This document shows, in pieces, positions 558 to 60,782 of a stretch of 64,000 bases of DNA. A program made the position numbers and the translations under genes. Position 1 is the first letter of the stretch. Every line of letters starts with the position of its first letter. Origin of the DNA: a virus (taxonomy: Duplodnaviria > Caudoviricetes); the IMG/VR virus record IMGVR_UViG_3300005675_000082, positions 3,777 through 67,776 of that record; one strand, written 5' to 3'. Under the pieces are notes generated by a model. It did not search any database. It saw only the letters and a list, made by a program, of their open reading frames with translations, and was not told the DNA's origin.

Positions 558-586
558 TTGAGACAATAGAATAAATGTGCTATAGT
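558..586 (+). promoter_or_regulatory. sigma70-type promoter with a LexA-like box in the spacer
   Basis: TTGAGA-N17-TATAGT; AGAATAAATGTGCT at 568-581. Confidence 0.7.
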
Positions 587-622
587 TAATCTACGCTTGA
601 TATACAATTAAGGGTTAACTCA

Positions 623-1225
623 ATGGCAACATTCACCAAGAACTTTTATGGGTCAACGGGGCCAGCGTGGACAAGCATCGGCAGTAACACGATGGTCTTC
701 TGTTCCTCCCTCACCGATCTGGCGACCAACATCACGGTGGCATCATATCAGGACGGGACGCACATCGGTAACGGCGACCCAGGCACAGACCAGTGCGGCG
801 CGAACCACGCCAACAACGTCAAGTACCTGACTTCCTCCACCATGAGCGTCAACGGCGGCGGGTCGGAAAACATCAACGACACCAATCTGGTCGCCAACGA
901 ATGCACGCTGCGTTACGACTTCGCCGATGCCGCCAGCGTCGCCATCACCAGCGCCCGTTTTTACTGCTTTAATGCCTCCGTCACGACCACACGCGCCAGC
1001 GGCTTGGATGTGCAGGCGTTTGAGCGCGGTGTGTCGGCAACGGCATGGACGCAGATCAACAACGACTCCGGGGCAACCGGAGGCGACAACAGCGGGCAGC
1101 GGCTGGATTTGGGGAATAAAAGCGCCGCCACTTCCCATAACTGGTATCTGGCGATTAGCGCTAGTCCCGAAAGCGTGGGCGCAAAAAGCGCATTCGACTT
1201 CGGGATAGCTCTTATATACAGCTAA
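623..1225 (+). CDS. Putative virion structural protein (accessory fibre/spike module)
   Basis: 200 aa, Ser/Thr/Gly/Asn-rich beta-type composition; RBS present; first gene after the promoter. Confidence 0.55.
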   Translation: MATFTKNFYGSTGPAWTSIGSNTMVFCSSLTDLATNITVASYQDGTHIGNGDPGTDQCGANHANNVKYLTSSTMSVNGGGSENINDTNLVANECTLRYDFADAASVAITSARFYCFNASVTTTRASGLDVQAFERGVSATAWTQINNDSGATGGDNSGQRLDLGNKSAATSHNWYLAISASPESVGAKSAFDFGIALIYS

Positions 1226-1233
1226 GGACACCC

Positions 1234-1671
1234 ATGTTTAACGCACTGATCCAACACGGGGCAGTCCAGCAGCATGAGGGCTGGATCGCGCTACTCAACA
1301 CAGGCGAACTGGTGTTTGAAAACGCGGCGTACACGGGCATGGCGGGCGAACTGACGAGCTGGCAGATGCTGCTGACACGCTGTCGGGCCGACAACGTGCG
1401 TATCGTCGGGCTGGCGCTGCGGCGCGCGGGGGCGTGGGTGATCGCGATGGACAATGCCGACAGCTATTTTCAGGCGCGTATGGCGACCAGCGTATTGAAC
1501 CAAACGCGTGAAGAACACTTTCAGGGCATCGGCACGGTGCTGGAAGCGCAGGGGCTTATCCAGATTACCTGGGTGAGTCAGTTTGGCGTGGTGTATCACG
1601 ATATGCAGCCCTTAAGCGCGCAGTGGGTACACACCAGCCAGCGCCAGCTAAACGATTTGTATACACCGTAG
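1234..1671 (+). CDS. Hypothetical phage protein
   Basis: 145-aa ORF, collinear in the operon, RBS AAGGA. Confidence 0.65.
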   Translation: MFNALIQHGAVQQHEGWIALLNTGELVFENAAYTGMAGELTSWQMLLTRCRADNVRIVGLALRRAGAWVIAMDNADSYFQARMATSVLNQTREEHFQGIGTVLEAQGLIQITWVSQFGVVYHDMQPLSAQWVHTSQRQLNDLYTP

Positions 1672-1678
1672 GGGGAAT

Positions 1679-2170
1679 ATGCCTACCGCATGGTATTTGT
1701 GTCCCTACAGCGCACGCAACTGGCGGCGCGTCAACGATGCGCGTTACTGCGCCATGCTGGACTTCGATGACCTGATTACGGCAGATGGCGGCGCATGGGC
1801 TGAAACGGAAGTGTTGGGCAATCATGCCATTGTCAAGGTGCGCGCGTCGGCAAATACGCTGACCACCATTAACGCGGCGGCAGGGTTTACCCGTCTGCCC
1901 AAGGATCGGTTAGACGCCCCGCTGAGCGACCTGACGACCCAACAAAAGACCGCCATTCGCAACAAGGTGCTGAGTCTGGGTTATACCAGCAAGGAAATCA
2001 CCAATCGTTTTGGCAGTGACCTGGGGGCGTACACCTTGCGCGACGTGCTGCGTTTTGTAGCGACCCGCCGACTGGAAGCGCGTTATGACGATGTATTGCA
2101 GCAGGTCGTGTTAGACGGGGCAGTAGTTACCCCGCGTTCCATTGAAAGCGTAGACGAAAGGGTATTGTAA
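1679..2170 (+). CDS. Hypothetical phage protein
   Basis: 163-aa ORF with RBS GGGGGA; stop overlaps a following ATG (TAATG). Confidence 0.7.
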   Translation: MPTAWYLCPYSARNWRRVNDARYCAMLDFDDLITADGGAWAETEVLGNHAIVKVRASANTLTTINAAAGFTRLPKDRLDAPLSDLTTQQKTAIRNKVLSLGYTSKEITNRFGSDLGAYTLRDVLRFVATRRLEARYDDVLQQVVLDGAVVTPRSIESVDERVL

Positions 2171-2188
2171 TGGCAGATAACGTGGCAA

Positions 2189-2980
2189 TTAGCTTTTTAG
2201 CCGTTCAATCTCCTGCTCTAATTCATGGATACGGGTTAAGGCAAGTTGCCATTCGTGATAATAAGTGCCATAGCCAGATGTTTCACCAGGTTGATTTTTG
2301 CCGCGAATATAAAGACGGAGGTTGGTAGGGTCGTTGTTAGTCTTGATACCATCCATATGATCGACAAGTTCATTAGATTGTAAAGGACGCTGCAATTGCC
2401 TAGCCATAACAAGACGATGTTCGAGAAGATAAGTCCGTTTGTCTTTCATAGCTTCATAAAGCCAAAGGTCTTCTTGCGCAATCGCGGCGCGACCAAGTCG
2501 GATATATCCTTTGACGGGTTCAATTTTTTTACCTTGGCCGAGATTAACCCAATCATGCTTCTTTTCAAATCCAGAGCACGGAATACATCTCCCGGTGAAT
2601 TTACCTTGTCGTATTTTTGCGGCGATAGGTCCCGGAGATTTCAAACGCTTTTGCCCACAATCGGGGCACGTAATGCGGACGTGAGTCAACCGCTGCCCTT
2701 TAACCAAAACAATCTCTGTGTCATCCCAATCAACTTGTGGATGGGCTGGTCTTTCGAGTCGATCAACCCTCACTTTATTCAGCAGCCTATCCTTGTAGCA
2801 ATATCCCGTATATGTTCCCTTGCGGATACGATAAGCAACTTGCCCCGCGTCATCGAATTGTTTTTTGTGGCAGTAAGGGCATGTGGTTTGTACCAGCAAT
2901 CGTCCATTTTCAGCGCGATAAACTGTATTCCAATCAACAGCAGGATGCGGCAAGCGTTCAAATTTTTGCTTCATTACCAT
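2189..2980 (-). CDS. HNH homing endonuclease (free-standing, antisense insertion)
   Basis: EHRLVM...VDHMDGIKTNNDPTNL HNH motif; CPYC/CPDC zinc ribbons; RBS AAGGAGG; own extended -10 TGCTATAAT; more AT-rich than its flanks. Confidence 0.85.
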   Translation of the reverse strand: MVMKQKFERLPHPAVDWNTVYRAENGRLLVQTTCPYCHKKQFDDAGQVAYRIRKGTYTGYCYKDRLLNKVRVDRLERPAHPQVDWDDTEIVLVKGQRLTHVRITCPDCGQKRLKSPGPIAAKIRQGKFTGRCIPCSGFEKKHDWVNLGQGKKIEPVKGYIRLGRAAIAQEDLWLYEAMKDKRTYLLEHRLVMARQLQRPLQSNELVDHMDGIKTNNDPTNLRLYIRGKNQPGETSGYGTYYHEWQLALTRIHELEQEIERLKS

Positions 2981-3026
2981 GTTGATCCTCCTTGTAAAAT
3001 TATAGCATTCAATGGCGGAGAATGTA

Positions 3027-3830
3027 ATGGCTGATAATCTAGGATACACAGCGGGCGCTGGTTCAACAGTAGCCACAGATGATGTAGCGGGCGTGCATTA
3101 CCAGCGGGTAAAACTGGTCAACGGCACGCTGGATGCAACGGACGCGATCCCCGGTGATGCCACCAACGGGCTTGACGTGGATGTGACGCGCGTGATCCCC
3201 GGCACCGGAACCACCAACTTAGGCAAGGCGGAAGATGATGCCCATACATCAGGGGACGTGGGCGTACTCGCGCTGGCGGTGCGACGTGACAGCGCGGCAG
3301 TAGGCACAGGGACAGATGGCGACATATCCACCCTGAACGTGGATGCGCAGGGGCGGCAGTGGGTGCGTCCCGCGCCTGTGCAGGTGCGCATCAGCGTGAC
3401 CCCTACGATCAGCACGACCGCCTATACTTCTGGCGATGTCGTGGGCGGGTTGCAGACCATCTCTAACGCGGCGCGCATCAGCGGGGGGAGTGGAATAATC
3501 CAGTCGATTATTGTCGTAGACAAAACACAAGCGCAGCGCGCGGCGATGGACATTCTCTTTTTTGACCGTTCCGTCACGGTTGCGGCAGATAACGCGGCAG
3601 TTGCCACCAGCGATGGCGACATGGCAAACATTCTTGGCGTTGTCTCTATCGGTCCGTACAACACCGCATGGCCGGGCACGCCTCTCAACAGCGTTTCAAC
3701 ACTGCTCAACGTCGGATTGCCGTTTGTGCTGAACGGGACAGATTTGTATGCGGTGGCAGTGGTACGCGGCACGCCGACCTATACCAGCACGTCAGACCTG
3801 ATTTTCATCTACACGATTTTGCAGGATTAA
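3027..3830 (+). CDS. Putative virion structural protein
   Basis: MADNLGYTAGAGSTVATDD N-terminus of a type seen in phage accessory virion proteins; RBS GGAG. Confidence 0.65.
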   Translation: MADNLGYTAGAGSTVATDDVAGVHYQRVKLVNGTLDATDAIPGDATNGLDVDVTRVIPGTGTTNLGKAEDDAHTSGDVGVLALAVRRDSAAVGTGTDGDISTLNVDAQGRQWVRPAPVQVRISVTPTISTTAYTSGDVVGGLQTISNAARISGGSGIIQSIIVVDKTQAQRAAMDILFFDRSVTVAADNAAVATSDGDMANILGVVSIGPYNTAWPGTPLNSVSTLLNVGLPFVLNGTDLYAVAVVRGTPTYTSTSDLIFIYTILQD

Positions 3831-6945: not shown

Positions 6946-7260
6946 ATGGCAAATGAATTCGACAATCAAAAAACGAAAAAAGCGGCGGAGTCGGTGGTCT
7001 ACGAAATCGACTGGCGCGGCGCGGGCAATCGCAAGGCATTACGTGACAGCGATACCATTGCGACCAGCGCATGGGCATTTGTGTCCACAGGGCACGGCAT
7101 GACCCTGGATAATGATGGGGTGGTGGGTACAAACACGGTGGCACAGGTGCGCCTTGTCGGTGGAACTGTCGGCGGGCCGTACCAACTGCGTAACACGATC
7201 ACCACCAGCGCCAGCCCTGTGGAAACGCTGGTCGAAGATTTGTTCATTACGGTGGAATAG
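6946..7260 (+). CDS. Small fibre/tail adaptor-like protein
   Basis: KKAAESVVYEIDW...VRLVGGTVGGPYQLRNTITT resembles the small adaptor family (K-D-P...Y-x-I-D-W) that follows fibre genes. Confidence 0.6.
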   Translation: MANEFDNQKTKKAAESVVYEIDWRGAGNRKALRDSDTIATSAWAFVSTGHGMTLDNDGVVGTNTVAQVRLVGGTVGGPYQLRNTITTSASPVETLVEDLFITVE

Positions 7261-7282
7261 GTTTTCGCCTATAGGTGAAAAC
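7261..7282. promoter_or_regulatory. 22-bp palindrome copy 2
   Basis: GTTTTCGCCTATAGGTGAAAAC immediately after the operon stop. Confidence 0.75.
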
Positions 7283-7318
7283 TACCCCTTATCATGAAGC
7301 GGGTAGGGAGTGTTCATT

Positions 7319-8185: not shown

Positions 8186-8416
8186 TTAATCGTCCATTAC
8201 GTCACTGGTGAAATCATTTAAATCAGGGTCAAAGCGTTGGCGGTAATGAGGTTGTGCTGCGTACCATTCCAGCGCCGCGCGAAGCCGCGCGGCTTCGCGC
8301 ATGGTGTCGAGTAGTTGGCTTGCGAGTGTTAGCGCTAAATGCGTAATTCCATCGCTACGCAGTTGCAGCGTGCCATCGTTTATAAAGGCCTCAAGTTCCT
8401 CAATCGTGTAGGTCAT
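8186..8416 (-). CDS. Hypothetical protein
   Basis: 76-aa ORF with RBS. Confidence 0.5.
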   Translation of the reverse strand: MTYTIEELEAFINDGTLQLRSDGITHLALTLASQLLDTMREAARLRAALEWYAAQPHYRQRFDPDLNDFTSDVMDD

Positions 8417-8452
8417 ATTCTCTCAACTCCTACAAATACCCATTTACAACAC

Positions 8453-8908
8453 TTATTCTTCTTCTCTGTCCGGCGCTTGAAACACAATATGATACCGATT
8501 GCGTAGCGGTGGCGTGCGCTCAATCGCAAGGCTAACAGTCCCCGCCAACAGAATTTCATCACGCGATAGCAAGCGCGAAAATGTCACATAGTAAGTGTGC
8601 TTTGATGAAACGTAGACATCCTCGACAATTGGAAACCGCAGCGTTTTAAGGCGTTGACGTAACCATGCCTCTTGTTTAATTTCCTCTTGTTCTTGGTTCA
8701 AAAAGTCGGCACGCATGTTGTCTCGACTTTTAGCGCTCGCTTCCATCAACTTGTCCTGATACTGCGCTACCAAGCCTTCAATCAGGTCATGTGTCTGCGT
8801 GCCAAATGTGACGTGCAAGCCGCTGCCGGACATCAGGATTTCAAGCTGGCGCAGCACGTCATTGGCGATCAGGTGCGATGGTTTGTCCAGGTCAAATTGG
8901 TGTGTCAT
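8453..8908 (-). CDS. Hypothetical protein
   Basis: ORF in the leftward block; start moved to MTHQF. Confidence 0.55.
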   Translation of the reverse strand: MTHQFDLDKPSHLIANDVLRQLEILMSGSGLHVTFGTQTHDLIEGLVAQYQDKLMEASAKSRDNMRADFLNQEQEEIKQEAWLRQRLKTLRFPIVEDVYVSSKHTYYVTFSRLLSRDEILLAGTVSLAIERTPPLRNRYHIVFQAPDREEE

Positions 8909-10324: not shown

Positions 10325-10780
10325 CTATTTGCTTGCCCAATTCTTGCCTTTTAGAATGCGGTAAATAGTCGTTTCGTGAACACCATATTCACGCGACAAA
10401 GCTACTTGCAAGCCCCACTTACGCGGCGCATCTGCAAACCGTTTACGGATGGTATGCACTTGCTCAATGGTTAGCTTATGCGTGCCATAATGCCGCCCTT
10501 TGGCGACCATGTCTTGCATATTGTCTTTGGCAGTGCCTAAAAACAGATGCCTAGGATTGACGCATGATGGATTGTCGCAGCGATGGCAAACGTCTAAAGC
10601 TGCATCAAACTGCCCATATGCGAGGATGTAAGAGACACGATGCGCCCGCATAACACGCCCGCCAATTGCTATCGTGCCATAGCCGCAATTCAGTGCGCCT
10701 TGCCAGTGCCAGCATTCATCAACACCAGCTTTCGCAACCTTTGACCAAAAGCGCTGTATATCCTTATCGGTGTACATCAT
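10325..10780 (-). CDS. HNH endonuclease (HNH_3 type) with C-terminal HTH
   Basis: AHRVSY...VCHRCDNPSCVNPRHLFLGTAKDNMQDM. Confidence 0.9.
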   Translation of the reverse strand: MMYTDKDIQRFWSKVAKAGVDECWHWQGALNCGYGTIAIGGRVMRAHRVSYILAYGQFDAALDVCHRCDNPSCVNPRHLFLGTAKDNMQDMVAKGRHYGTHKLTIEQVHTIRKRFADAPRKWGLQVALSREYGVHETTIYRILKGKNWASK

Positions 10781-10801
10781 GCCCTCTCGCCTCAAGACTC
10801 G

Positions 10802-13168
10802 CTAGAGTAATACCATCTGCACAGGCACGCGCTCTGGTGCCTGCGGCATCGGTTGATCGTACACCAGCCCCGTTTCAAAACTGGCCTGCTGCGTCCCATT
10901 ACGGCGGCTGAAACACGGCCCGCACAGTGTCACGTCGCCGTTGTGGACACGCACGATAACCTCATTGTCGTTGCGCGTCGCGCGTTCCTCCGGCGTCCCC
11001 ATATCCTTGCCGCAGTCGTCACAGCGGATAGGCGTTCGCGCTGCCGTTTTCACCTTGCCCAGATGCGCCAGCACGACCGTCACGGCACGTTCTCCGGCGC
11101 TGCTCAACTGCCGCTGCCACGCATCGTTACTAGGCGACCAGTGGAAACCGTGCCGCTTTAACAGGGTGATGGACTCGGCGTCGGGTTTGCCGGGGAACTG
11201 CAACCGGATGCGGTTGTCGGTTGTGTCGCGGATCAGCGTTACATCACCGTAGGTCTCCTGCTCCGGCTGAGAGGCCGCGCGCTGCACCTGCGCCTGCAAT
11301 TCGCTCAGGCGTTGTTTCATGCGGCGAATGTTGGCGTTGTTGTTGGTGAGTTGGTAATCGGGATACCCGACACGCCCCCTGTAATCGCCTTGCAGCAGTT
11401 TGTCAGCGGTCTGCTGGCTGATGTGCAGGTGCTCAATCAGCGCAGGGGCACGCTGTTCCGCTGGCAGGCGCATCACCTTACGCAGCGCGGCATTGGTCTG
11501 TTTCATGTGCGCCTGTTCGGCTTCTGCCGCCGTGATTTTGGCTTGCAGCTTCAGTATCGCCTGCGGGTCGTCTGACGAGATAACATCGTGGTTTTCAGCG
11601 CTTGCCGCCTTTTGTTCAAGGTCTTTGGCGCGCTGTAGTTTCTCAAAGCCGCGTCGCCACGTCCGGTCAATGCGGTTGCGATAGCTGGTGTCCCACTTCT
11701 CGCTGTGGTGTCCCTTCAGGATCGGCTGGCCGAAAGGGATGATGGACGCCATCTGTTCGGCGCGGCGTAGGTCGCGTGTGGCATCGGTACGCGCGGCGTC
11801 GGCTGCTGCGTGCATCCGTTCAAGCCGTGACTGCACCCGCGTCTGGTACGCTTCGATGCGTTCAGCGCAGGACGCGCACAGGGGCTTATCGTCGCTGGTG
11901 GACGTTGTATTGCTGGCGCAGATCACACAGCGCTGCGGGGCAGGCTGCGGCTGGTCGTAGAGCGTGCCCGTGTCGAAAGCCAATGTCAACGACGATACTG
12001 GCACGAGACGATTCTTGCCGTCGCCGCCATGAACAAAAGCCTTTACCCCATAGCCACCTGTGAGCGTTCCCGCCGAATGTTCAGTGCCGACGATAGAGCC
12101 AATTTTTAACCCCGCGAACTCGGTGAGAACAACATCGGCAGCAGCCGTGATAAGCGTCAGTGTGTTTTCGGGGAGATGACCGAATGTTCCGTCCTCAAAG
12201 AGAAGGGATGCGTTGGCGTGTTCATGGCTAGGGTATGTCTTTTCGGAACGGAGAACCATTGCAGGTTTGCCGTAGCTGGTTTCAATGATGTCGCCACGTT
12301 TGAGTTTGCCGAGCATGGGGGAAGGCGTTTCGGCTTCAAAGAGAGCCGGTTGGTCATACATCATGCCCGTGTCGAAGGTCGGCTCAACCGTCAAAGATCC
12401 CTTGACAGTTGGAAAATCTTCTCGCCAGTGTTCCAGTGTCATGGGCAGGCTTTTCATGTTGCCCTTGAAGAAGATGCGAATGCCGTGTTTATCAGCCACA
12501 TCCAGTAAGGCGCGGACATCACTCTCACGCGGCGGGAAATACTTCGGTCCCGATGAAGCCGCCCCGATGACAACCCAACTGATGACGCCGTGATACTTCT
12601 CAAATAGGTCTGAGAAGTCGAATGCCAGCGGTTCGGCACTAATCCAGCGCACCTTTGCCTTCACCTTCGACAGAGACTCAAAGGTACGTTCCAGCATCCG
12701 GCGCTGCTGTTCGATGCTCAACCGCTTGCCCCACATGAACGTGGGCGGGGTCGATGCGCCGATCCATACGTTATCGGGAATGTCGAAGTGTTGAACACGG
12801 ACAGGGTTTTTGGTCAACATCTGGAAGGTGTGCCAGTGAGCGCGGCGGCACATATCCAGCACCGCTTCTATTTCCTCATTGGGAACCCAATGCCCGAATA
12901 CATCTGCCATGCTGCCGACAAAAATTCTGGCAGGGGTCTTGAGTTTCAGCGGCTCATCCAGAATAGCGGGGTTCCAGTAGTGATGTTCAAACCCATGCGG
13001 ATAGGCTTTCTGGGCGACGTTGGTTGCCACATCTTCGGCGTAGCAGTTGGCAATAGTGCCATCTGGCATCTCCCATGCACAGCCGTGTTTACATCCTGAA
13101 ATTGGATTGTGGGTGTATTGAGTCCATTCTATCCCACGCCCACCATTCGTTTTTTGTTGTCTGTTCAT
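10802..13168 (-). CDS. Polyvalent protein: DUF5131 (Gp37/Gp68-like) + SH3/KOW-like + Zn finger + DUF3560-like + Zn finger
   Basis: IEWTQYTHNPISGCKHGC...CYAE, FVGSMADVF, LTKNP, WIGAS, SAEPL, WVVIG (DUF5131); IPFGQPILKGHHSE...ISSDDP (DUF3560-like). Confidence 0.75.
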   Translation of the reverse strand: MNRQQKTNGGRGIEWTQYTHNPISGCKHGCAWEMPDGTIANCYAEDVATNVAQKAYPHGFEHHYWNPAILDEPLKLKTPARIFVGSMADVFGHWVPNEEIEAVLDMCRRAHWHTFQMLTKNPVRVQHFDIPDNVWIGASTPPTFMWGKRLSIEQQRRMLERTFESLSKVKAKVRWISAEPLAFDFSDLFEKYHGVISWVVIGAASSGPKYFPPRESDVRALLDVADKHGIRIFFKGNMKSLPMTLEHWREDFPTVKGSLTVEPTFDTGMMYDQPALFEAETPSPMLGKLKRGDIIETSYGKPAMVLRSEKTYPSHEHANASLLFEDGTFGHLPENTLTLITAAADVVLTEFAGLKIGSIVGTEHSAGTLTGGYGVKAFVHGGDGKNRLVPVSSLTLAFDTGTLYDQPQPAPQRCVICASNTTSTSDDKPLCASCAERIEAYQTRVQSRLERMHAAADAARTDATRDLRRAEQMASIIPFGQPILKGHHSEKWDTSYRNRIDRTWRRGFEKLQRAKDLEQKAASAENHDVISSDDPQAILKLQAKITAAEAEQAHMKQTNAALRKVMRLPAEQRAPALIEHLHISQQTADKLLQGDYRGRVGYPDYQLTNNNANIRRMKQRLSELQAQVQRAASQPEQETYGDVTLIRDTTDNRIRLQFPGKPDAESITLLKRHGFHWSPSNDAWQRQLSSAGERAVTVVLAHLGKVKTAARTPIRCDDCGKDMGTPEERATRNDNEVIVRVHNGDVTLCGPCFSRRNGTQQASFETGLVYDQPMPQAPERVPVQMVLL

Positions 13169-14040: not shown

Positions 14041-14073
14041 TATAATCCGAGAAACAATCAGCACAAATGTTCG
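14041..14073 (+). promoter_or_regulatory. terS promoter -10 with LexA-like box
   Basis: TATAAT at 14041; AGCACAAATGTTCG at 14060-14073. Confidence 0.65.
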
Positions 14074-18914: not shown

Positions 18915-18934
18915 TATAATGGCACACATGTTCT
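18915..18934 (+). promoter_or_regulatory. Promoter -10 with LexA-like box
   Basis: TATAAT at 18915; GGCACACATGTTCT at 18921-18934. Confidence 0.7.
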
Positions 18935-18935
18935 A

Positions 18936-18957
18936 GTTTTCACCTATAGGAGAAAAC
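18936..18957. promoter_or_regulatory. 22-bp palindrome copy 3
   Basis: GTTTTCACCTATAGGAGAAAAC overlapping the RBS of the gene at 18961. Confidence 0.75.
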
Positions 18958-18960
18958 CTC

Positions 18961-39572: not shown

Positions 39573-39578
39573 CTGAGA

Positions 39579-39604: not shown

Positions 39605-40112
39605 ACGGCGTGAGCAGCACGTTAAATTCATAACCGTAGACTCTGGTGGGCGGAATGGCGTCGTAAATCGTGACGCGCACCTTGCCCTCAGCGTCCGGCC
39701 CGACGTTTACTTGCAATTCCCCTGTCGTCAGTTGATACACGTTCACCTCACCCCAATAGGTTGTTTCTGTGCCTGTAGCGATGAGCGTATTTTCTTCAGG
39801 CGTTTCAGGCAGCGCGGCCAGTTCTTCTGCGGGCAGGGTCACGACTGCAAATCCGGTTGCGCCATCCAGCCCGACACCAAAGAGCGTAAAGGCGTCCCCC
39901 TCCGGGGCGATGCTGATCTGGATGCCGCTGCTGCTGTAGGTGAGGAACGTCGCAAGCTGTGCCACCAGCACATCGCGGGCATCGTCCACTTCAAACGGTG
40001 TGGGGTATGCCTTCGTTTCAGCGCTGGCAAGGCGAAAGGCGTGCGCCTCGATGGTCTGGTCTAATTCGGACAGCAGCAGGTACATGGCGGCGCGTTGTTT
40101 GGGGGTGAGCAT
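39603..40112 (-). CDS. Hypothetical protein
   Basis: Start MLTPKQ after RBS AAGGAG. Confidence 0.6.
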   Translation of the reverse strand: MLTPKQRAAMYLLLSELDQTIEAHAFRLASAETKAYPTPFEVDDARDVLVAQLATFLTYSSSGIQISIAPEGDAFTLFGVGLDGATGFAVVTLPAEELAALPETPEENTLIATGTETTYWGEVNVYQLTTGELQVNVGPDAEGKVRVTIYDAIPPTRVYGYEFNVLLTP

Positions 40113-49585: not shown

Positions 49586-49942
49586 TTACAGCAGCGGCAT
49601 CTGCTCCGGCACATCCTCAGCGACAATAATCATGGCGTGCGTCTCAAATTCAAAGTCGGCTTTGGCCTGTTTCCATGACTTCGTGCGCAGGCGTCCGGTG
49701 AAGCGCTGCCACGCCCGTAAATAGGCGGTTCTGCTGGTGACGGTAATGGTTTTTTCTGCCAGTCTGATGTCCTCATGCGCCAGTATCTGCCAGACGTGAA
49801 AGCCGATACTGTCCGCCGGAATGAACACGGCATACGGTTCCTGTTTAACCGCCAGCGGGTAGCCGTAATCGTGCAGCCGCAGCGCATCGTCCCCTGTCAC
49901 CACATGATACTGAGTATCAAAACGATAGAGCGTGATGGTCAT
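49586..49942 (-). CDS. Hypothetical protein
   Basis: 118 aa, coupled to DnaB. Confidence 0.6.
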   Translation of the reverse strand: MTITLYRFDTQYHVVTGDDALRLHDYGYPLAVKQEPYAVFIPADSIGFHVWQILAHEDIRLAEKTITVTSRTAYLRAWQRFTGRLRTKSWKQAKADFEFETHAMIIVAEDVPEQMPLL

Positions 49943-51306
49943 AACAGCGCCAGGTCAATATCACGGACAGCGGCATTGGCAAAACGGGTGAGCGTCTTCT
50001 CGAAATACAGTGTTACCGTCCCCTCGCCACCGTCGCGCTGCTTGGCGACGATCAGTTCAGCAGTATTCGGAAACTCCGATGCGGGGTTATAGACCACATC
50101 ACGATACAGAAACATCACCACATCGGCCTCAGCTTCCAGATCACCCGACTCTTTTAAGTCGCTCAACACAGGGCGTTTATCCTTGCGGTCATCGACGCCG
50201 CGCGATAACTGATGCGTCGCCAGTATCGGCACGTTCAATTCACGTTTGCCCGTCATGTCTTTCAGTTTGGAAGCGATGTGTGAGACCTCAAGGCGGCGCT
50301 CCCCGATGCGTTTGCCCGGTGACATCTTATAAATGCCATCGACGATCAGCAGGTCTAAATCGCCATGTTTACGGGCAATGCGGTTGGCTTTCACTTCCAC
50401 CTGACGCGGGGACAGCGCTTTGGAGTCGTCGATAAAAAGTGGTAGCTTGCCACCTTCGCCAATGGACTCAACAAACCGTTCCCACAACGTTGTATCCAGA
50501 TCGCCGTGCGTAATGGTGCGGGACGGGATGCCGGAAATCATCGAATAGAGGCGGCTCATGATTTCCTCGACTTCCATCTCCATCGACAGAAATAGCACTC
50601 TTTTACCCATGCGTGCGACATGCAGCGCAATCGCCAGAAACAGCGCGGTTTTACCCATGCGCGGGCGTCCACCGAGGATATAAAACTTACGCTGAAGCCC
50701 GTCCAGCAGCGTATCCACTTCGGTAAAGCCTGTCGGGATGCCCTTCAGCCCGTGAATGGGATTGTTCACCTGCTGTTCTATCTGGTTGTAAAAGGCGATA
50801 GAGGCTTCACGCATGGTGACGGTATCGTTGGGCAGCGCGTGTTCGGTAACGGTGAATAAACGTTCCTCAGCCTTGCTCACGATCTGCTCTACGGGCATGG
50901 TTTCGTTGAGCGCCAGCCCGCGTATTTCATCCGACGCGCTCAGCAGCTTACGGCGAATGGACGCGCGTTCCACCAGGCGGGCATAGGTTTCGGCGTATAC
51001 TGAACTCGGTGTATTGCGAAACAGGCTGATGAGATAGGTATCGCCACCGATAGCCTCAAGCTGTTTAAAGGCTTTCAGTTCTTCGACCACTGTCAGGTAA
51101 TCAATCGCTTTTTTCTGTTCCAGCAGTCGCAGCATAGCCTGCCAGATGTAGCGGTGACGGATCAGGAAAAAATCCTCCGGCTTGAGGATCGCGGCGATAT
51201 CGGGCATCACAACAGGATTGACCAGCACCGCGCCAATTACGGCTTCCTCGGCTTCCTGGCTGAACGGCACATTTAATGCCGGGGCGGGAGTAGGTTGTTG
51301 AGTCAT
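49939..51306 (-). CDS. dnaB: Replicative DNA helicase DnaB
   Basis: PFSQEAEEAVIG, GGRPRMGKT, LSMEM, QLSRGVDDRKDKRPVLSDLKESG, IVAKQRDG. Confidence 0.95.
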   Translation of the reverse strand: MTQQPTPAPALNVPFSQEAEEAVIGAVLVNPVVMPDIAAILKPEDFFLIRHRYIWQAMLRLLEQKKAIDYLTVVEELKAFKQLEAIGGDTYLISLFRNTPSSVYAETYARLVERASIRRKLLSASDEIRGLALNETMPVEQIVSKAEERLFTVTEHALPNDTVTMREASIAFYNQIEQQVNNPIHGLKGIPTGFTEVDTLLDGLQRKFYILGGRPRMGKTALFLAIALHVARMGKRVLFLSMEMEVEEIMSRLYSMISGIPSRTITHGDLDTTLWERFVESIGEGGKLPLFIDDSKALSPRQVEVKANRIARKHGDLDLLIVDGIYKMSPGKRIGERRLEVSHIASKLKDMTGKRELNVPILATHQLSRGVDDRKDKRPVLSDLKESGDLEAEADVVMFLYRDVVYNPASEFPNTAELIVAKQRDGGEGTVTLYFEKTLTRFANAAVRDIDLALL

Positions 51307-52502
51307 GAGAATAAGGTCGCTTTCTTTTCGGCCATCTTACGGGCAAGTTCGGCGCGTTCATCGGCGCTGATTTCACGAGTTGCAGGCGCGGGCTGCTGGG
51401 ACGGGCGTGCTGGCGCTGGCGCTGTAAATTCTTCCCATGCGGAAATAAAGGCTGCGGGATCTTTGGGCGGGTCGGCGTTGGGTTTATTCACCTTCCACTG
51501 CGCATATACAGCCCGTACCCGCTGGGCAATCATGGCGTCTTCGTTCACTTCGTTGTAGGTCTTGCCCAGATGTTCGGCAAGGCAGGTAATCACCTTACCC
51601 ACACGTCCCGCGTTACCGTTTAAGACTTCAGGACTGAAGCCGGGGCGCATGTGCCAGCCGCACTCGGCAATCGCGTCAAAGGTCGGGCTGCGTTTCGCGG
51701 GCGGTTTGGTCAGCTTGTAGGTCGCATACTTCGCATCAGCATTGAGTACACTGCCCTTCACAGGAACGATGCCATGTTTCGCCCATGCTTCCAGCAGTGG
51801 GGCGTAGTCCTTTGGCGTGTAGGTCTTGGCGTACACCTCCTGTTTTGCTTCATTCACCGGATAATACTTGCTGGCGGTGAACCGTCCCTTGGCCGCTGGG
51901 ACTGCGGTTGTATTCTTTTCGTTTGCAGCGCTGGGATCTGTCCCTGTTTCTCCTGAAGGCGAAACGGTTTCGATTTGACGAAAGTCATCCTGTGAGATTG
52001 CCGCAGGCAAAGAATCTCTATTCTTTGTAGTTATCTCTGTAGTACTCTCTGTTATGGATTTGACGATTTTCGTTAAGTCCATTTGACGATTTTCGTCAAA
52101 TCCAATTTGCGGATTCTGTAAAATCGACTGCACACGATTTTTAAATTCTGGCCAGTTAATGCGCAGGTGAGTCGTCGGGACATCATTAAATTTCCATGTC
52201 CTGACAATGATTAACCCACGCTTGGCAAGGCGTTTAATACAATCGCGGGAATAGCGCTCAGTAATGCGGCATTCATCCCACCAGTCCTTTGCACGTTTCG
52301 CCAGCCATAATTCCCCATCGCGCTGGATCGTCATGCGCGGTTTACCCGTTTCGAGATTAAACCCATGCCAGAACATAATCTGACTGAACATAATGCCATC
52401 AATCAAATCACCATCGTTAATGTCTACATAGATGCGCTTCACGGCGATAACATCCCGCTGCGCATTTTCGCTGGCTAACCAGCCTTTGACCCACTCATCC
52501 AT
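51303..52502 (-). CDS. Phage replication initiator (O/DnaD-like)
   Basis: N-terminal wHTH-like region (DGIMFSQIMFW...W..E), ITESTTEIT linker, internal iterons, coupled to dnaB. Confidence 0.75.
   Translation of the reverse strand: MDEWVKGWLASENAQRDVIAVKRIYVDINDGDLIDGIMFSQIMFWHGFNLETGKPRMTIQRDGELWLAKRAKDWWDECRITERYSRDCIKRLAKRGLIIVRTWKFNDVPTTHLRINWPEFKNRVQSILQNPQIGFDENRQMDLTKIVKSITESTTEITTKNRDSLPAAISQDDFRQIETVSPSGETGTDPSAANEKNTTAVPAAKGRFTASKYYPVNEAKQEVYAKTYTPKDYAPLLEAWAKHGIVPVKGSVLNADAKYATYKLTKPPAKRSPTFDAIAECGWHMRPGFSPEVLNGNAGRVGKVITCLAEHLGKTYNEVNEDAMIAQRVRAVYAQWKVNKPNADPPKDPAAFISAWEEFTAPAPARPSQQPAPATREISADERAELARKMAEKKATLFS
51946..51965. promoter_or_regulatory. Palindrome copy 6 (intragenic, 20 bp)
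   Basis: GTTTCTCCTGAAGGCGAAAC. Confidence 0.5.
52058..52101. repeat. Iteron-like repeats, putative replication origin
   Basis: ATTTGACGATTTTCGT at 52058 and 52081; ATTTGACGA-TTT-TCGTCAAAT palindrome; partial copy near 51973. Confidence 0.6.
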
Positions 52503-52568
52503 AGCTCATCTGTTCTTTGGTTATAACGAATGTTTGACAAACCCACACGCCTCCGCTAGACTAAAGGC

Positions 52569-54249: not shown

Positions 54250-54549
54250 TCAGGCAGGCACGAAACAGGTTAGTTTTGTGTCTGCTGCAAGGAAAAGTTC
54301 CGAGCGCTGGCAGGCGCCTTCAACACTCACCAGCGCTCGGAATGAACCATCGTCCAGACGCGTAAGCGCCCGGACTCGTTTGTCGCCTGCAAAGGTCGGG
54401 CTGTGGAAACTGGCATACGCCCGACTGTCGCAGACCTCGGCGATGTCTCTGACGACTTCACGCATATCAGCGACTACTAAAAACCACTGCCAGCCTAACA
54501 TCGCCAGTCGCTTCACAATATCCTCAGGTGGTGCTGCATACGTGGACAT
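54250..54549 (-). CDS. Hypothetical protein
   Basis: First gene of the leftward early operon, RBS AAGGAG. Confidence 0.55.
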   Translation of the reverse strand: MSTYAAPPEDIVKRLAMLGWQWFLVVADMREVVRDIAEVCDSRAYASFHSPTFAGDKRVRALTRLDDGSFRALVSVEGACQRSELFLAADTKLTCFVPA

Positions 54550-54579
54550 TTTTTACTCCTTAAGTGTATCATAATCTTC

Positions 54580-54593
54580 AGAACACATGTGTT
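54580..54593. promoter_or_regulatory. LexA-like box upstream of the leftward early operon
   Basis: AGAACACATGTGTT, flanked by TTAAGTGTATC direct repeats (54560, 54601). Confidence 0.55.
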
Positions 54594-54732
54594 ACGTGGG
54601 TTAAGTGTATCTCAATTTTTGTCGTTGGGGTGTATCCTTTCGCTCGGATATTTTCATCGCAGTGCGTTTACTGGTATCCTCTATTTGTAAATAAATCATA
54701 TTATGGAATTGCGGAATTGTCAATCAAACAAT

Positions 54733-54761
54733 TTGACAACAATTCAGAACACATGTACAAT
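54733..54761 (+). promoter_or_regulatory. Consensus promoter with LexA-like box
   Basis: TTGACA-N17-TACAAT; AGAACACATGTACA at 54746-54759. Confidence 0.8.
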
Positions 54762-54773: not shown

Positions 54774-54995
54774 ATGTCTAGGAAAACAACGGAGGGGTAT
54801 GTGAACGTTCAGGTGAAACGCGAGGTTCACGCGATGCTCGAATTGCTCAAAGAACGAATGAACGCCAATAGCTTTTCCGAAACGCTGGAGGAATATATTC
54901 GTGCGCACAACCCTGAAATTCCAGAAGCCGTGAATGCCATTGAAGAAGCAAAGCGACGGGCACTGGGACACGGGAGACGATCCGAATCGCAGTAA
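54774..54995 (+). CDS. Small RHH/CopG-like regulator
   Basis: 73 aa; YVNVQVKREVHAMLELLK...SFSETLEEYI strand-helix-helix pattern. Confidence 0.6.
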   Translation: MSRKTTEGYVNVQVKREVHAMLELLKERMNANSFSETLEEYIRAHNPEIPEAVNAIEEAKRRALGHGRRSESQ

Positions 54996-55274: not shown

Positions 55275-55703
55275 ATGATCTATTTTCTTCAGCGTGCCGA
55301 TGGCGCGATTAAGATTGGGTTGACAACCAATAAGCGTACTCTTGACTCGCGCATAATAGTGCTTGATAAACAATTTGATGGGATAAGACTTTTTGGTGTT
55401 ATCCCCGGTTTTATTAAGCATGAAAGAGAACTTCACGAGAAATTTTCCAATTATCGAATAAGGATGGAACCAAAGAGGATTGGGTATACCGAATGGTTTT
55501 TTCCGTATGATGAATTGACTTGTTATATCCAGAGGTTTGCAACATCTAATATCATGTTGTGTGTGAGGTTTCAGTTGCAGCGCAAAAAAAGCGACAATCT
55601 CCTTGAGGAATGGCAAGACTATGTAAAATCTTGCACTCAATTTTTTAACGCACGAACCAATTTGGGTCGATGGAGCTGTGGGTTTTCTACATTTCCACAT
55701 TAG
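55275..55703 (+). CDS. T5orf172/GIY-YIG-like nuclease domain protein
   Basis: MIYF...IKIG.T...R...E..LH..F...R...EWF. Confidence 0.75.
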   Translation: MIYFLQRADGAIKIGLTTNKRTLDSRIIVLDKQFDGIRLFGVIPGFIKHERELHEKFSNYRIRMEPKRIGYTEWFFPYDELTCYIQRFATSNIMLCVRFQLQRKKSDNLLEEWQDYVKSCTQFFNARTNLGRWSCGFSTFPH

Positions 55704-55885: not shown

Positions 55886-55911
55886 TATAATCTGGTTAGA
55901 ACTTCTGTTCC
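55886..55911 (+). promoter_or_regulatory. Promoter -10 with perfect LexA-like box
   Basis: TATAAT at 55886; AGAACTTCTGTTCC at 55898-55911. Confidence 0.7.
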
Positions 55912-56077: not shown

Positions 56078-57028
56078 ATGAGCGACAGCATCGTCCTGAT
56101 CCCCATGAGCGCAGAGGAAGCGCGTACCTGCGTGACGGACATCCGTGAGCATATGCGCGTGTCAGATGAACAGCATCAACTGGCGCGCAAAAAAGCACAT
56201 GACCTGTGGCAGCGCGAAGGCTGGAAAGCGCTGGGGTACAGCAGTTTCCTCAAATGCGCACAGGCTGAGTTTGGTAAGTCGTTCCAGCATGTGTACAGAC
56301 TCAAGGATGCGGTGGAAGTCGAACAGCAGTTGACTTCGTTTTCACCTCTAGGTGAAAAGTTTGCCCTGCCTGAAACACACGCCCGCAAGCTGAAGTCACT
56401 GCCCACAGCGGAAAGCCGCTACGACGCGCTGAAAGTTGCCGAGCAGATGGCGTCCAGCGAGGGCAGCGATGTGGTGGCACAGCGGCACATTGAGGCGGCG
56501 GTAAACGTGACCGCGAAGAAGCTGCGGGTGTTTGCCAGCCGTTACGCCCCACTGTCGCAGATGGTGACAACAGGGGCGCTCAGCGTCGAAGATGCCGAGG
56601 ATATTGCGGTACGCATTGACAGACTGAAACCGCAGGCGAAAGGTTTTGTGTTGCAGCATCTGGTACGTGCTGGCGGAATGCGCGGGGATGTGCTGAGTTT
56701 CATCGGGGAGCAGTATCAGCGTGGAGATGACCCAATTGCGGCGCTGATACTACAGACGGTGAACGCCACTGGCTGCCTGGATGGGACGCTTTTAAAGAAT
56801 GCCAACATGGATAATACCAAACGCGCATTGTATGAGGCGCGACTGGAAGTGGAGAGCGAGCAGGCGCAGCACGAAGAAGATTACGGCCCCGTCAACCTGA
56901 CGCTGTGGGAGCGTGACGTGGAACGTTCAGCGGCGGCGCTGGTGACGATCATTGATAAAGCGTGGGCACAGCTATTGTGGTATCGGCTGGGTGAAGCGCT
57001 GGGAGTCGGGACAGATGGCGCGCGGTGA
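56078..57028 (+). CDS. Phage DNA-binding protein (WKALGY.SF...HTH-like), contains palindrome copy 7
   Basis: W..LGY.SF...F..S..HVYRL..A..V and PE.HAR.L motifs. Confidence 0.6.
   Translation: MSDSIVLIPMSAEEARTCVTDIREHMRVSDEQHQLARKKAHDLWQREGWKALGYSSFLKCAQAEFGKSFQHVYRLKDAVEVEQQLTSFSPLGEKFALPETHARKLKSLPTAESRYDALKVAEQMASSEGSDVVAQRHIEAAVNVTAKKLRVFASRYAPLSQMVTTGALSVEDAEDIAVRIDRLKPQAKGFVLQHLVRAGGMRGDVLSFIGEQYQRGDDPIAALILQTVNATGCLDGTLLKNANMDNTKRALYEARLEVESEQAQHEEDYGPVNLTLWERDVERSAAALVTIIDKAWAQLLWYRLGEALGVGTDGAR
56338..56359. promoter_or_regulatory. 22-bp palindrome copy 7 (intragenic)
   Basis: GTTTTCACCTCTAGGTGAAAAG. Confidence 0.7.
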
Positions 57029-57241: not shown

Positions 57242-58030
57242 ATGCAAACCATGAAAGTGATTACACTGGCCAATGAAAAAGGCGGCGTCGGCAAGACCAC
57301 GCTGGCCATTCACATCGCGGCAGGCTTAGCCATTCGCGGTGCAAAGGTTCTTTTAATCGACGCCGATGGACAGGGGCACGCGACATTCGGGATGGGGCTG
57401 AACAAAGCGCCCGGTTTCTATGACATGGTCGTGCGCGGCGCGGCATGGGCAGACATTATTCGCCCGCTGGCCCCTGAGAGTTACGAACCGCCCACAGAAG
57501 CCTCTAAGGGGTTTCTGGCGGTGCTGCCGGGGAACAGTGAAACCATGCTCATTGGGCAGAAGGTAGAAAATTCACTGACGATCAACGCCCGTCTGGAAGA
57601 ACTGGCGGGACTGTTTGATGTCGTGCTGTTTGACACTTCACCCACGCCGAGTCTGCTGCATGGCATTATCTACATGGCGACAGACGGCATCATCTACCCC
57701 ACCGAATGCGAAACCTACAGCCTGCAAGCGCTGACCGCGACGTATAACAACCTGAATGTGTTTAGTCGCCAGCGCCAGAAGCTGACAGGCGTCGGGGTTG
57801 ATACGCTGGGTATTGTGCCGATGATGCACAAAAACACGATTGAACACAACGAAAACCTTGCCGATCTACGTACCAATTTCGGCGACATGGTGACCGCGCC
57901 TATTCCCAACCGTGTGACGTGGGTCGAAGCATCGAACCGCCGCACGCCCGTCTTCCGCTACGCGCCACGTTCGGCTGCGGCGCGTGAGGCATGGGCGCTG
58001 GTCAACGGGGTGCTGGCGTATGTCGGATAA
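57242..58030 (+). CDS. parA: ParA/Soj family Walker ATPase
   Basis: [38 protein letters not shown]...EA...TPVF.YAP.S. Confidence 0.95.
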
Positions 58031-58793: not shown

Positions 58794-59063
58794 ATGGCAA
58801 TACGAAACATGACGCAACCCAAACTGTACGCAACCATTGTGCTGCCCAACGAACAGACCATTGAGGTTCCGGTATCGGTGACGCTGGAAACACCGAACGC
58901 TGTCACCCTTGAGCCGGGGCGTATCGCAATCAGCATCGACGTCAAACTGCTGACTGTTCGCGATGATACCGGACGCGTGTACACCGTCATGGTAGATGAC
59001 GCGCCGCTGGTATTTGTCGCCCGTAGTAATGCCGTGACGCAGATTATGGCGAGGGTTGAATGA
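58794..59063 (+). CDS. Hypothetical protein
   Basis: 89-aa collinear ORF. Confidence 0.5.
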   Translation: MAIRNMTQPKLYATIVLPNEQTIEVPVSVTLETPNAVTLEPGRIAISIDVKLLTVRDDTGRVYTVMVDDAPLVFVARSNAVTQIMARVE

Positions 59064-59353
59064 GCGACGGCATTGACCTGACTCCTATCGTCAAAGGGCA
59101 TTTTGTCTCCGGTGATGGCATCTTGATCGACATTGGTGAAACGATTATCAAGCTGTATCGCAAGCGCGGCGCGGCGGAGATGGAACTTGTGGCAACGGTA
59201 ACACGTCCACAGAAGTCCAGCGTTAGACTAGACGGGTTTGGGCGTGCTGCGTTGGACGATTTCAGCGATTGGCCTACCCAATGGGCAGAGGACGCGGATT
59301 TGTTTACTGGCGAGTTCGAGATACAAGTATATCCAAAGGGCGGTGACGAATGA
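59060..59353 (+). CDS. Hypothetical protein
   Basis: 97 aa; ends EIQVYPK. Confidence 0.55.
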   Translation: MSDGIDLTPIVKGHFVSGDGILIDIGETIIKLYRKRGAAEMELVATVTRPQKSSVRLDGFGRAALDDFSDWPTQWAEDADLFTGEFEIQVYPKGGDE

Positions 59354-59688
59354 TACCCACAGCGATTATCCACGAATTAAACTGCCGTGCCGCGATTCGA
59401 GCCTCGCAGTTTGGGCAGGCCACCTATCAGGCATACATTCCGCGCCAATGGTGGACAGAAGACATGCTATTGAGATATGAAGCTGAAGCCGTTGCCATTA
59501 CAATGTTTGTCGAAGAACCTGACTTTACACGCGATGGCGGCAGTGTCACACTTGATGAATTGACAATCAGGCTGCCGTTAATGCATCCCTCGTTGGACAA
59601 CTTTGGAGACGTGCCAAATCCCGCTGTTGAGAGATGGTTAGGGGCTGATATAGAGATACAAGTATATCCAAAGGCTAGTGCCGAATGA
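59350..59688 (+). CDS. Hypothetical protein
   Basis: 112 aa; ends EIQVYPK. Confidence 0.55.
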   Translation: MIPTAIIHELNCRAAIRASQFGQATYQAYIPRQWWTEDMLLRYEAEAVAITMFVEEPDFTRDGGSVTLDELTIRLPLMHPSLDNFGDVPNPAVERWLGADIEIQVYPKASAE

Positions 59689-59909
59689 CACCACAACGAC
59701 CCCCACAACCCTATTTACGCGGCTTTACGATGTTTGACGTGGTGCGCACGATGGACGGGCGCGAAGGTGTGATTCTCGACCTGTTTACCCGTCAGGAGGC
59801 GACGGTGGGCTTCTGGAACGAACCACTGCGCGCGGGGCTGGAAACCGCCAGCGCCACAAAGGAACACCACCCGTTAGACGATCTGACGTTTGTGAGGACG
59901 CTGGAATGA
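59685..59909 (+). CDS. Small SH3/KOW-like protein
   Basis: FDVVRTMDGREGVI..L....A.V. Confidence 0.45.
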   Translation: MTPQRPPQPYLRGFTMFDVVRTMDGREGVILDLFTRQEATVGFWNEPLRAGLETASATKEHHPLDDLTFVRTLE

Positions 59910-60379
59910 CTGACTACAGCACATGGCCTGATGCGCGCATCAATTACCACATCGCTTGCATGACGGGGTGTAAACTAGAGGTGACCCCTGAATACGGCTC
60001 CTTGCCCTGGCTGCGACTGGTGGATAAAAACGACAGTCACATCAAGGACACCGATGTGACATGGGGCAGCATGGAAACACGCCGCCAGTTCTGGTCGTGG
60101 GGCTTGTGGGCGAATGATGCAAACATGGCGCTGAAGCTGCTGACCGACATCACAGTTATTGAGTGTCACCCCACCACTAAACCCCCTTTAACATGGTACA
60201 TGCAATTTGTTTACTATCCGGCGCGCGAGGTGGTCGGGTTTGAAACGCATGTGTTTGCCAAGTCGTTTCCCCGCGCGCTTTGCGAATGCTGGCTCATGTG
60301 GCAGGACGCCCTTAATCCACTTCGACAATCCGCAGATCAGCCGTTGCCACGCACGCCACGACGCCACAGGGCGGGTTAG
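59906..60379 (+). CDS. Phage ABA-sandwich-like domain protein
   Basis: INYHIA...W..DAN.A..L...PRALCECWL. Confidence 0.5.
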   Translation: MTDYSTWPDARINYHIACMTGCKLEVTPEYGSLPWLRLVDKNDSHIKDTDVTWGSMETRRQFWSWGLWANDANMALKLLTDITVIECHPTTKPPLTWYMQFVYYPAREVVGFETHVFAKSFPRALCECWLMWQDALNPLRQSADQPLPRTPRRHRAG

Positions 60380-60593
60380 CCACCATCATACGCTGTGCAT
60401 ACCACAGCGCATAGATTTTCGCCTCATGCTCCGGCTTGGAATAGCAGATGATAATTTGTAATGCTGGATATTTGTCGTTGAAAAGTTCGATACGAGAAAA
60501 AGGTCCATCAGATTCAATGGTGGGGGCGAGGTAGGGATAACCATGTTCTCTCAGTTTGGAATACACAGTTTTAGCGATTTGTTTTGTGTCCAC
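60312..60593 (-). CDS. Hypothetical protein
   Basis: 93 aa with its own RBS region. Confidence 0.45.
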   Translation of the reverse strand: MDTKQIAKTVYSKLREHGYPYLAPTIESDGPFSRIELFNDKYPALQIIICYSKPEHEAKIYALWYAQRMMVANPPCGVVACVATADLRIVEVD

Positions 60594-60657
60594 TTATGGT
60601 TATCCAGTAGTTAAAATGAGATATGTATAATGTAACATAGTTCAAGATACAAAATCA

Positions 60658-60782
60658 AGAATATTTGTTCTACGAACGAAAATGAGATATAATTGGGGGA
60701 TTAAAAGGGATACCCAAGATGCTTGACCATCTTGGGTATTGATCGACTTACTTGAGGGCAAGTCAGAAGGATTATACCACTT
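60658..60782 (+). promoter_or_regulatory. LexA-like box, promoter and two-hairpin leader of the GIY-YIG gene
   Basis: AGAATATTTGTTCT overlapping -35; TATAAT at 60688; perfect 12-bp stem 60710-60739; AAGGATTATACC before the ATG. Confidence 0.7.

Follow-up and report, generated by a model that had tools for sequence, protein, structure and literature searches.

The 64,000-nucleotide stretch of DNA analyzed here (the window) comprises bases 3777-67776 of one 67,776-bp IMG/VR virus record (IMGVR_UViG_3300005675_000082), a tailed phage genome that is ~98% complete (CheckV) and has a GC content of ~55%; negative coordinates (e.g., -381) denote the 3.8 kb of the record that precede the window. Dispersed over this genome is a 14-bp near-palindrome resembling the operator of LexA, the repressor of the SOS response, which lies at 11 promoters, those of packaging, head, and tail genes included, and which matches the lexA operator of the bacterial clade that the phage probably infects. 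We consider, with moderate confidence, that these boxes are operators of host LexA, which, perhaps together with a cofactor, is their most likely binder.

The first-pass annotation of this DNA had reported 11 boxes resembling GAAC-N4-GTTC, and a 14-bp near-palindrome is present at all 11 coordinates. The exact motif, however, occurs at the frequency expected by chance (2 matches vs. 1.03 expected, namely the promoter box at 55898 and a site at 23649 inside the capsid gene), and the enriched motif is instead AGAACA-NN-TGTTCT with one half-site degenerate, the enrichment appearing once the inner ACA/TGT is counted. With up to one mismatch, GAACANNTGTTC has 11 matches compared to 2.04 expected, and with up to two mismatches the 14-mer AGAACANNTGTTCT has 13 compared to 2.05; none of 100 shuffled sequences reached either count, so that the scan against shuffled sequence proposed earlier bears out the degenerate motif and not the exact one. 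In a position weight matrix (PWM) scan ten sites score above 15 bits and are set apart from all else, followed by 52503, 55898, -381, and 8446. Further candidates are at -381, 8446, and 52503, and 11-15 sites are spread over 61 kb. Mismatches to the GAAC/GTTC core number none in one of the 11 sites, one in seven, and two in three, and every listed site but 568 retains at least one perfect GAAC half. Among the phage half-sites, position 3 is A in 59%, C in 32%, and T in 9%, and A6/T9 is kept in 95%, giving the sub-motif G-N-ACA-NN-TGT-N-C. All 11 sites are intergenic, though intergenic DNA makes up 8.1% of the record (P ~1e-12), and the downstream gene starts 10-170 nt from the box. The boxes, with two weaker candidates, are as follows.

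568-581: box AGAATAAATGTGCT, in the spacer of TTGAGA-N17-TATAGT, where G12 makes a TGn extended -10; upstream of the operon 623-2170 (+)
14060-14073: box AGCACAAATGTTCG, 13 nt past a TATAAT and 10 nt before the terS-like gene (14083)
18921-18934: box GGCACACATGTTCT, straight after TATAAT, between the portal-MuF gene (16081-18909) and gene 18961
21267-21280: box TGCACATTTGTTCT, over the -35 of TGCACA-N17-TACAAT; upstream of 21343 and the protease and capsid genes
28834-28847: box CGAACACTTGTGCT, in the spacer of TTGCCA-N18-TACAAT (TGn extended -10); upstream of 28886 (+)
29493-29506: box AGAACATTTGTGTT, joined directly to an extended -10 (TGTTATAAT); precedes the tape measure gene 29575-32115
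36485-36498: box TGTACATCTGTTCT, abutting TATAAC; upstream of the operon 36602-40064 (one SH3_3 protein)
54580-54593: box AGAACACATGTGTT, 31 nt before gene 54250-54549 (-) and just upstream of the TATGAT -10 of that gene
54746-54759: box AGAACACATGTACA, in the spacer of the consensus promoter TTGACA-N17-TACAAT
55898-55911: box AGAACTTCTGTTCC, the sole perfect GAAC-N4-GTTC core among the boxes, 6 nt past TATAAT
60658-60671: box AGAATATTTGTTCT, right half usable as a -35 (TTGTTC-N17-TATAAT); upstream of the GIY-YIG homing endonuclease gene 60783-61640
8446-8459: weaker candidate ACAACACTTATTCT, 30 nt before gene 8186-8416 (-)
52503-52516: weaker candidate AGCTCATCTGTTCT, abutting the start of the DnaD-like initiator gene 51303-52502 (-); doubtful because of its low score (7.9) on the host PWM described below

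Each of the 11 boxes overlaps or abuts the -35 or -10 element of a sigma70-type promoter. This had been recognized for ten of them, whereas 54580, excepted earlier, proved to lie beside the -10 of 54250-54549. Boxes in the spacer, with G12 supplying the TGn of an extended -10, are those at 568, 28834, and 29493, and also 36485 and 54746; those over the -35 are 21267, 60658, and, on the minus strand, 54580; and those at or after +1 are 14060, 18921, and 55898. Since placement relative to the -35 and -10 varies in this manner, the boxes behave as operators rather than as a promoter element. At three sites the G that breaks the core is at the same time the G of the TGn extended -10. Three boxes (54580, 54746, 55898) thus belong to the control region, and others to promoters of terS, head, tail, and tape measure genes. 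The promoter at box 54746 drives the gene of a 73-amino-acid (aa) ribbon-helix-helix (RHH)-like protein (54774-54995), a small membrane protein, and a T5orf172 protein; box 55898 lies upstream of the DUF3102-like gene 56078 and of parA at 57242, and box 28834 adjoins the divergent promoter of the HNH gene 27377-28699 (-).

Several smaller features accompany the boxes. One is a second motif: of 14 boxes, six (568, 21267, 28834, 36485, 54580, and 55898) have TTAA[GC] in the 45 nt downstream, at a distance of 7-26 nt, compared to 0.66 expected by chance; TTAAGTGTATC flanks box 54580 on both sides (54560-54611), and TTAAGTATA comes after box 55898 (55919). This motif may mark a conserved start of transcription or be bound by a second regulator. 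A recurring hairpin-like element TTTTCACCTATAGGNGAAAAC stands beside some boxes (7255-7285, 18935-18960, ~520-545). Between 54695 and 54765 two consensus promoters are arranged back to back, their -35 hexamers forming the inverted repeat TTGTCAA-N8-TTGACAA; a 366-aa minus-strand open reading frame (ORF) called across this region was rejected as spurious.

Megablast returned no close annotated relatives of the phage, and a capsid-based search found no relatives among genome contigs and viral contigs. Two terL relatives, P0002 and P0003, have 81-83% identity. Named homologs of terL at 54-56% identity come from metagenome-assembled genomes (MAGs) of Anaerolineae, and the best 80 genome loci retrieved with a terL profile are nearly all from this class (Anaerolineales, Caldilineales, Aggregatilineales, Ardenticatenales), with a few from Planctomycetota. 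From these relatives we infer that the host belongs to the Anaerolineae (Chloroflexota). Planctomycetota are disfavored as hosts, for their lexA promoters lack the box; the lexA loci of Gemmataceae (L186-L189) carry in its place a conserved element of the form ~TGTGTACG...TAATATACT...GTTCA, which is possibly the LexA operator of that phylum.

The operator of the host clade was derived de novo, by seeking any tetramer palindrome upstream of lexA in 36 Anaerolineae genomes, and the phage was not consulted. A perfect GAAC-N4-GTTC was found in 32 of the 36 genomes, with all other palindromes far behind, and it is located between TTGACA and TATAAT, often with a weaker second box ~25 bp downstream. 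In the primary boxes the GAAC/GTTC core is invariant (position 3 is always A), while A6 is present in 55% and positions 6 and 9 vary as R/Y. The secondary boxes are less strict; some contain a GTGC half (L086, L111, L120, L125), the commonest variant in the phage, and others ATTC or TTTC halves. A box also precedes uvrB in 5 of 30 Anaerolineae genomes, two of them reading CGAACTTCTGTTCT/G, nearly identical to phage box 55898. No box was found within 300 nt upstream of recA in 30 genomes, and it seems from these two genes that the SOS regulon of Anaerolineae is small or variable.

The phage boxes share with these host operators the 14-bp palindrome and the placement between TTGACA and TATAAT. 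When the phage was scanned with a PWM built from boxes of the probable host clade alone, 13 matches reached 10 bits (5.0+-2.5 expected), eight reached 12 bits (2.25 expected), and four reached 14 bits (0.65 expected), and nine of the ten best matches were promoter boxes. The phage boxes match the lexA operator of the host clade, though in the weak half of its range. They differ from it in that the host core is perfect with R/Y variation at positions 6 and 9, whereas the phage core is imperfect with A6/T9 fixed.

The boxes are also kept in relatives. Among close ones, the terS box 14060 and the six bases preceding it are invariant in L003, L004, and L005, even though the flanks in L005 are shorter by 12 nt upstream of the box and longer by 8 nt downstream, and box 18921 is kept in L004 as GACACATATGTTCT. 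A 79% relative, G086, carries boxes with the same 12-bp sequence as sites 568, -381, and 14060, together with the reverse complement of the 36485 12-mer; the loose pattern GNACANNTGTNC with one mismatch did not discriminate on G086 (15 matches vs. 21 for the reversed control). In a distant set of 80 loci (1.12 Mb; terL identity 40-56%), perfect GAAC-N4-GTTC sites number 46, compared to 13.4 expected, and 13 of these lie within 2 kb upstream of terL, a density of 0.096/kb vs. 0.012/kb by chance. These upstream boxes (L042, L044, L045, L047, L053, L054, L058, L061, L085) are located inside TTGACA...TATAAT or TATACT promoters, with host-PWM scores of 18-22 bits, and further perfect boxes follow the portal gene in L019, L065, L068, L069, and L073; the two positions are those of window sites 14060 and 18921. 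If a host factor binds there, phages with no more than 40-56% terL identity would be expected to retain the host LexA consensus at equivalent promoters, and such retention is difficult to square with an immunity repressor of the phage. In one Anaerolineae MAG locus, L081, an identical box GGAACGGCCGTTCT recurs at least seven times between -3451 and +2835 relative to terL, several copies standing directly before a ribosome-binding site; the locus resembles a second phage in which an operator or repeat with the LexA core is present in many copies.

Among known systems the closest is the Bacillus thuringiensis tectivirus GIL01, in which host LexA together with the 50-aa protein gp7 represses the early promoter P1 and the late promoter P3, stable binding of LexA at the half-site dinBox1b occurs only with gp7, and gp6, a truncated LexA, activates P3 (PMC4551915, PMC6182141). 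We searched the record for any comparable protein. The absence of a CI-like repressor with a peptidase S24 domain, noted before for the window, extends to six frames of the whole 67.8-kb record, in which neither Peptidase_S24 (PF00717) nor LexA_DNA_bind (PF01726) is found and HTH_3 gives only sub-threshold matches. Nor does the rest of the genome hold a LexA-like ORF: a LexA hidden Markov model (HMM) from 36 host proteins (hmmsearch --max, 920 frames) gave nothing better than E = 0.18, whereas as a positive control an N-terminal LexA profile detects GIL01 gp6 at 1.4e-13. Likewise, no homolog of GIL01 gp1, gp6, or gp7 was detected in the phage (gp7 by phmmer --max, E >1), although gp7 may have a non-homologous analog. 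Pfam and PHROGs searches on ~60 proteins, including all control-region ORFs, revealed no repressor, and hhalign on ten candidates no LexA-like or repressor domain. For the small control-region genes, the 99-aa protein 54250-54549 has no detectable family and returned nothing from Atlas, the 73-aa protein 54774-54995 has no family and is RHH-like from its sequence pattern only, and the 316-aa protein (56078-57028) received a DUF3102-like label from Atlas, with an uninformative PDB sequence search. About half of the ORFs of the phage are unannotated, which sets the scope of these negatives.

Truncated LexA homologs do exist elsewhere in the clade. Anaerolineae genomes encode proteins with a winged helix-turn-helix (wHTH) domain and a C-terminal coiled coil but no S24 peptidase, similar to GIL01 gp6, at L092/L198:575 (G003:C626), L095/L192:11631 (G001:C97), and L193:9694-10521 (G001:C42). 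Two of their promoters carry imperfect boxes of the phage type, AGAACACTTGTGCT in L092 and AGAACACTTGTCCT in L095. The L193 homolog is encoded in a module syntenic with the phage, where it is flanked by DnaB and helicase/methylase genes having 43-55% identity to the phage genes; the phage genes in the corresponding slot have no similarity to it.

Gene content bears on the lifestyle of the phage. The plus-strand block at 14-40 kb encodes a terS-like helix-turn-helix protein, terL, a portal-MuF fusion, prohead protease, major capsid, adaptor, major tail protein, tape measure, Dit, and a fiber protein, in agreement with the terS-like, terL, portal, protease, capsid, tape measure, Dit, and tail labels of the first-pass annotation; in the operon 36602-40064, labeled there as lysis, the sole domain signal is SH3_3 in 38043-39572. 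Between 40 and 54 kb the minus strand carries genes for RecT, a DnaD-like initiator, DnaB, a helicase, and a DNA methyltransferase. Two features of the genome are relevant here.

49939-52502 (-): replication module of DnaB-like helicase and DnaD-like initiator
57242-58030 (+): ParA-like partition ATPase

No tyrosine or serine recombinase, integrase, or resolvase was found in the record, and the element has never been seen integrated, because an identical terL sits on 15 contigs of which the longest is 69 kb. The element is either a phage-plasmid or a lytic phage, and ParA with the plasmid-like replication genes makes the former probable; together with the lack of an integrase they suggest an extrachromosomal prophage. 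Five genes of the homing-endonuclease type (HNH, GIY-YIG, T5orf172) are also present, at 2189-3076 (-), 10325-10795 (-), 27377-28699 (-), 55275-55703 (+), and 60783-61640 (+), those at 27377 and 60783 adjoining boxed promoters, and a 788-aa DUF5131-DUF3560 fusion protein is encoded at 10802-13168 (-) within a minus-strand block that has no boxes.

These data can be assembled into a plausible scenario. The operators would be of the Cheo-box type (CGAACA-NN-TGTTCG), and a non-integrating phage of ~68 kb would have them within at least 11 of its sigma70-type promoters. Intact LexA, sitting on boxes in the spacer, over the -35, or at +1, would block RNA polymerase at the packaging, head, tail, tape-measure, and post-tail operons and in the divergent control region at 54.5-56 kb, while genes with box-less promoters (the helicase/methylase block, the Bro-N block, and the 7.3-13.9 kb block) would stay on. 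DNA damage would then lead to RecA-stimulated self-cleavage of LexA and to simultaneous derepression. Nearly every box combines one consensus half (GAACA) with one degenerate half and is therefore a weak site. Such weakness may allow early derepression with little titration of host LexA; alternatively, the weak sites may need a phage cofactor, as gp7 serves the half-site boxes in GIL01.

A number of observations weigh against host LexA as the binder. Ten of the 11 boxes carry one or two mismatches in a GAAC/GTTC core that is invariant in primary host operators, and on the host PWM the phage boxes score 8.8-16.2 bits compared to 10.8-20.7 (median 17.7) for host boxes, three of them falling below the host minimum. 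A6/T9 is found in 95% of phage positions vs. A in 55% of the host, C or T is tolerated at position 3, and in a leave-one-out comparison a phage-specific PWM suits ten of 11 sites better than the host PWM does, with a mean gain of 2.8 bits. LexA alone may thus be insufficient at the weakened boxes, and no homolog of the gp7 that assists it in GIL01 was found. Strong sigma70-like promoters without any box are present at 13948(-), 28787(-), 41679(-), 49436(-)/49475(+), 52534(+), and 54695(-), the last with box 54580 ~100 nt downstream of it, so the earlier statement that nearly every promoter carries a box was too strong. An unrecognized DNA-binding protein could also be encoded among the unannotated ORFs, and we infer lysogeny solely from ParA, the plasmid-like replication genes, and the missing integrase. 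The misfit of the boxes is softened in that GTGC halves occur at host lexA as well and that the three core-breaking Gs double as the TGn G. The original proposal of direct silencing by host LexA thus keeps its basis in the match to the host-clade operator, in the boxes at early and morphogenesis promoters, and in the absence of CI and LexA genes, but has to accommodate ten imperfect cores and the box-less promoters.

The same sub-motif, G-N-ACA-NN-TGT-N-C, could be the binding site of a protein encoded by the phage, either a repressor or, were the phage purely lytic, a regulator of timing, and its likeness to the LexA box would then be ancestral or convergent. Candidates would be the 99-aa protein 54250-54549, the RHH-like 54774-54995, the DUF3102-like 56078-57028, or genes behind box-less promoters. 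The motif is coherent and unlike host boxes, position 3 being free and ACA/TGT near-invariant, with the leave-one-out preference noted above; two of the boxes lie in a divergent, immunity-like promoter region beside small putative DNA-binding genes; and related Anaerolineae elements have truncated LexA homologs with phage-type boxes (the AGAACACTTGTGCT type), one in a syntenic module. However, Pfam, PHROGs, the clade-specific HMM, hhalign, and Atlas yielded no candidate with a repressor or LexA-like domain, box 55898 has the canonical LexA form also seen before uvrB in the host clade, and the exact host consensus at the same promoters of distant relatives fits poorly with the fast-evolving specificities of immunity systems. 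We therefore regard a phage binder as unlikely, though it deserves serious consideration.

It is also conceivable, but quite improbable, that both act, host LexA and a phage factor sharing or competing for the boxes so that late expression is timed rather than simply silenced. The intermediate character of the boxes and the truncated LexA homologs of related Anaerolineae elements would be in line with this, as would the precedent of GIL01 P3, where LexA meets its truncated homolog gp6 (PMC6182141), but no truncated LexA is detectable in the phage by the very profile that finds gp6. Least credible, and in our view highly improbable, is that the boxes are part of promoters read by a sigma factor or RNA polymerase specific to the phage, or that they arise from chance or base composition. 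The boxes always accompany promoters and exact GAAC-N4-GTTC is unenriched, as such a reading would have it; on the contrary, the box is palindromic, its enrichment and intergenic placement are far above chance, it is kept in relatives, and the hexamers themselves are of the standard sigma70 type. The promoter-element reading was rejected since the distance from box to hexamer is not fixed, ranging from the spacer and the -35 to +1 and up to +20.

Operators repeated throughout a phage genome are familiar from systems with a repressor of their own, such as the C1 operators of P1, the CIR sites of phiC31, and the gp71 stoperators of mycobacteriophage L5, the latter being asymmetric and acting inside transcription units; P1 is furthermore a plasmid prophage with ParA/ParB and a DnaB-like helicase. 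In all of them, as here, one operator is present in many genome-wide copies including late regions. They differ in that a dedicated phage repressor binds operators unrelated to the host LexA box, whereas in the present phage the operator matches that of host LexA and no repressor gene was found.

GIL01 is similar in other respects. It is a non-integrating prophage-type element without a CI-like repressor, as the present phage probably is, and has LexA boxes of the Cheo type at early and late promoters, some of them non-canonical or half-site boxes for which GIL01 needs a phage cofactor (PMC4551915, PMC6182141). A prophage that neither integrates nor has a repressor of its own, and whose late genes LexA controls, is thus on record already, and the earlier view that LexA-dependent phages employ the repressor at one or a few early promoters was incomplete, for P3 is a late promoter repressed by LexA-gp7 (PMC6182141). 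Unlike the present phage, a 68-kb tailed one with ParA, GIL01 is a 15-kb linear genome with three promoters and five named boxes (dinBox1, 1b, 2, 3, and one more), whose late boxes are of high affinity, whereas here 11-15 boxes stand at as many promoters and nearly all are weak in one half. The host phylum here is Chloroflexota, and gp1, gp6, and gp7 have no detectable homolog. A full-text literature search found no report beyond GIL01 of LexA boxes on terminase or late operons. What is new is accordingly the number of promoters, 11-15 in a 68-kb tailed phage, the host phylum, the systematic design with one good half, the lack of gp6 and gp7 homologs, and a family-wide LexA box on the packaging promoter.

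To our knowledge, regulation in Chloroflexota phages is essentially unstudied, because their hosts are mostly uncultivated. The most far-reaching form of the proposal is that host LexA is the sole global repressor of a 68-kb Anaerolineae phage-plasmid through 11-15 deliberately weakened operators, probably with a new corepressor unrelated to gp7, and that a LexA-gated terminase/packaging promoter is conserved in a Chloroflexota phage family, some members of which add truncated wHTH-coiled-coil LexA homologs; taken as a whole this is tentative, and we are more inclined to doubt than to accept it. The weakened half-sites nevertheless offer a testable case of a multi-operator mobile element that avoids titration of the host repressor, or exploits it, and the LexA box recurring on the terS promoter of distant relatives provides a simple marker for SOS-inducible elements in metagenomes. 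If LexA does gate the packaging, head, and tail promoters, prophage induction in Chloroflexota would proceed without any phage repressor, and the principle established in GIL01, a 15-kb tectivirus of Bacillota, would hold for large tailed phage-plasmids of a second phylum as well.

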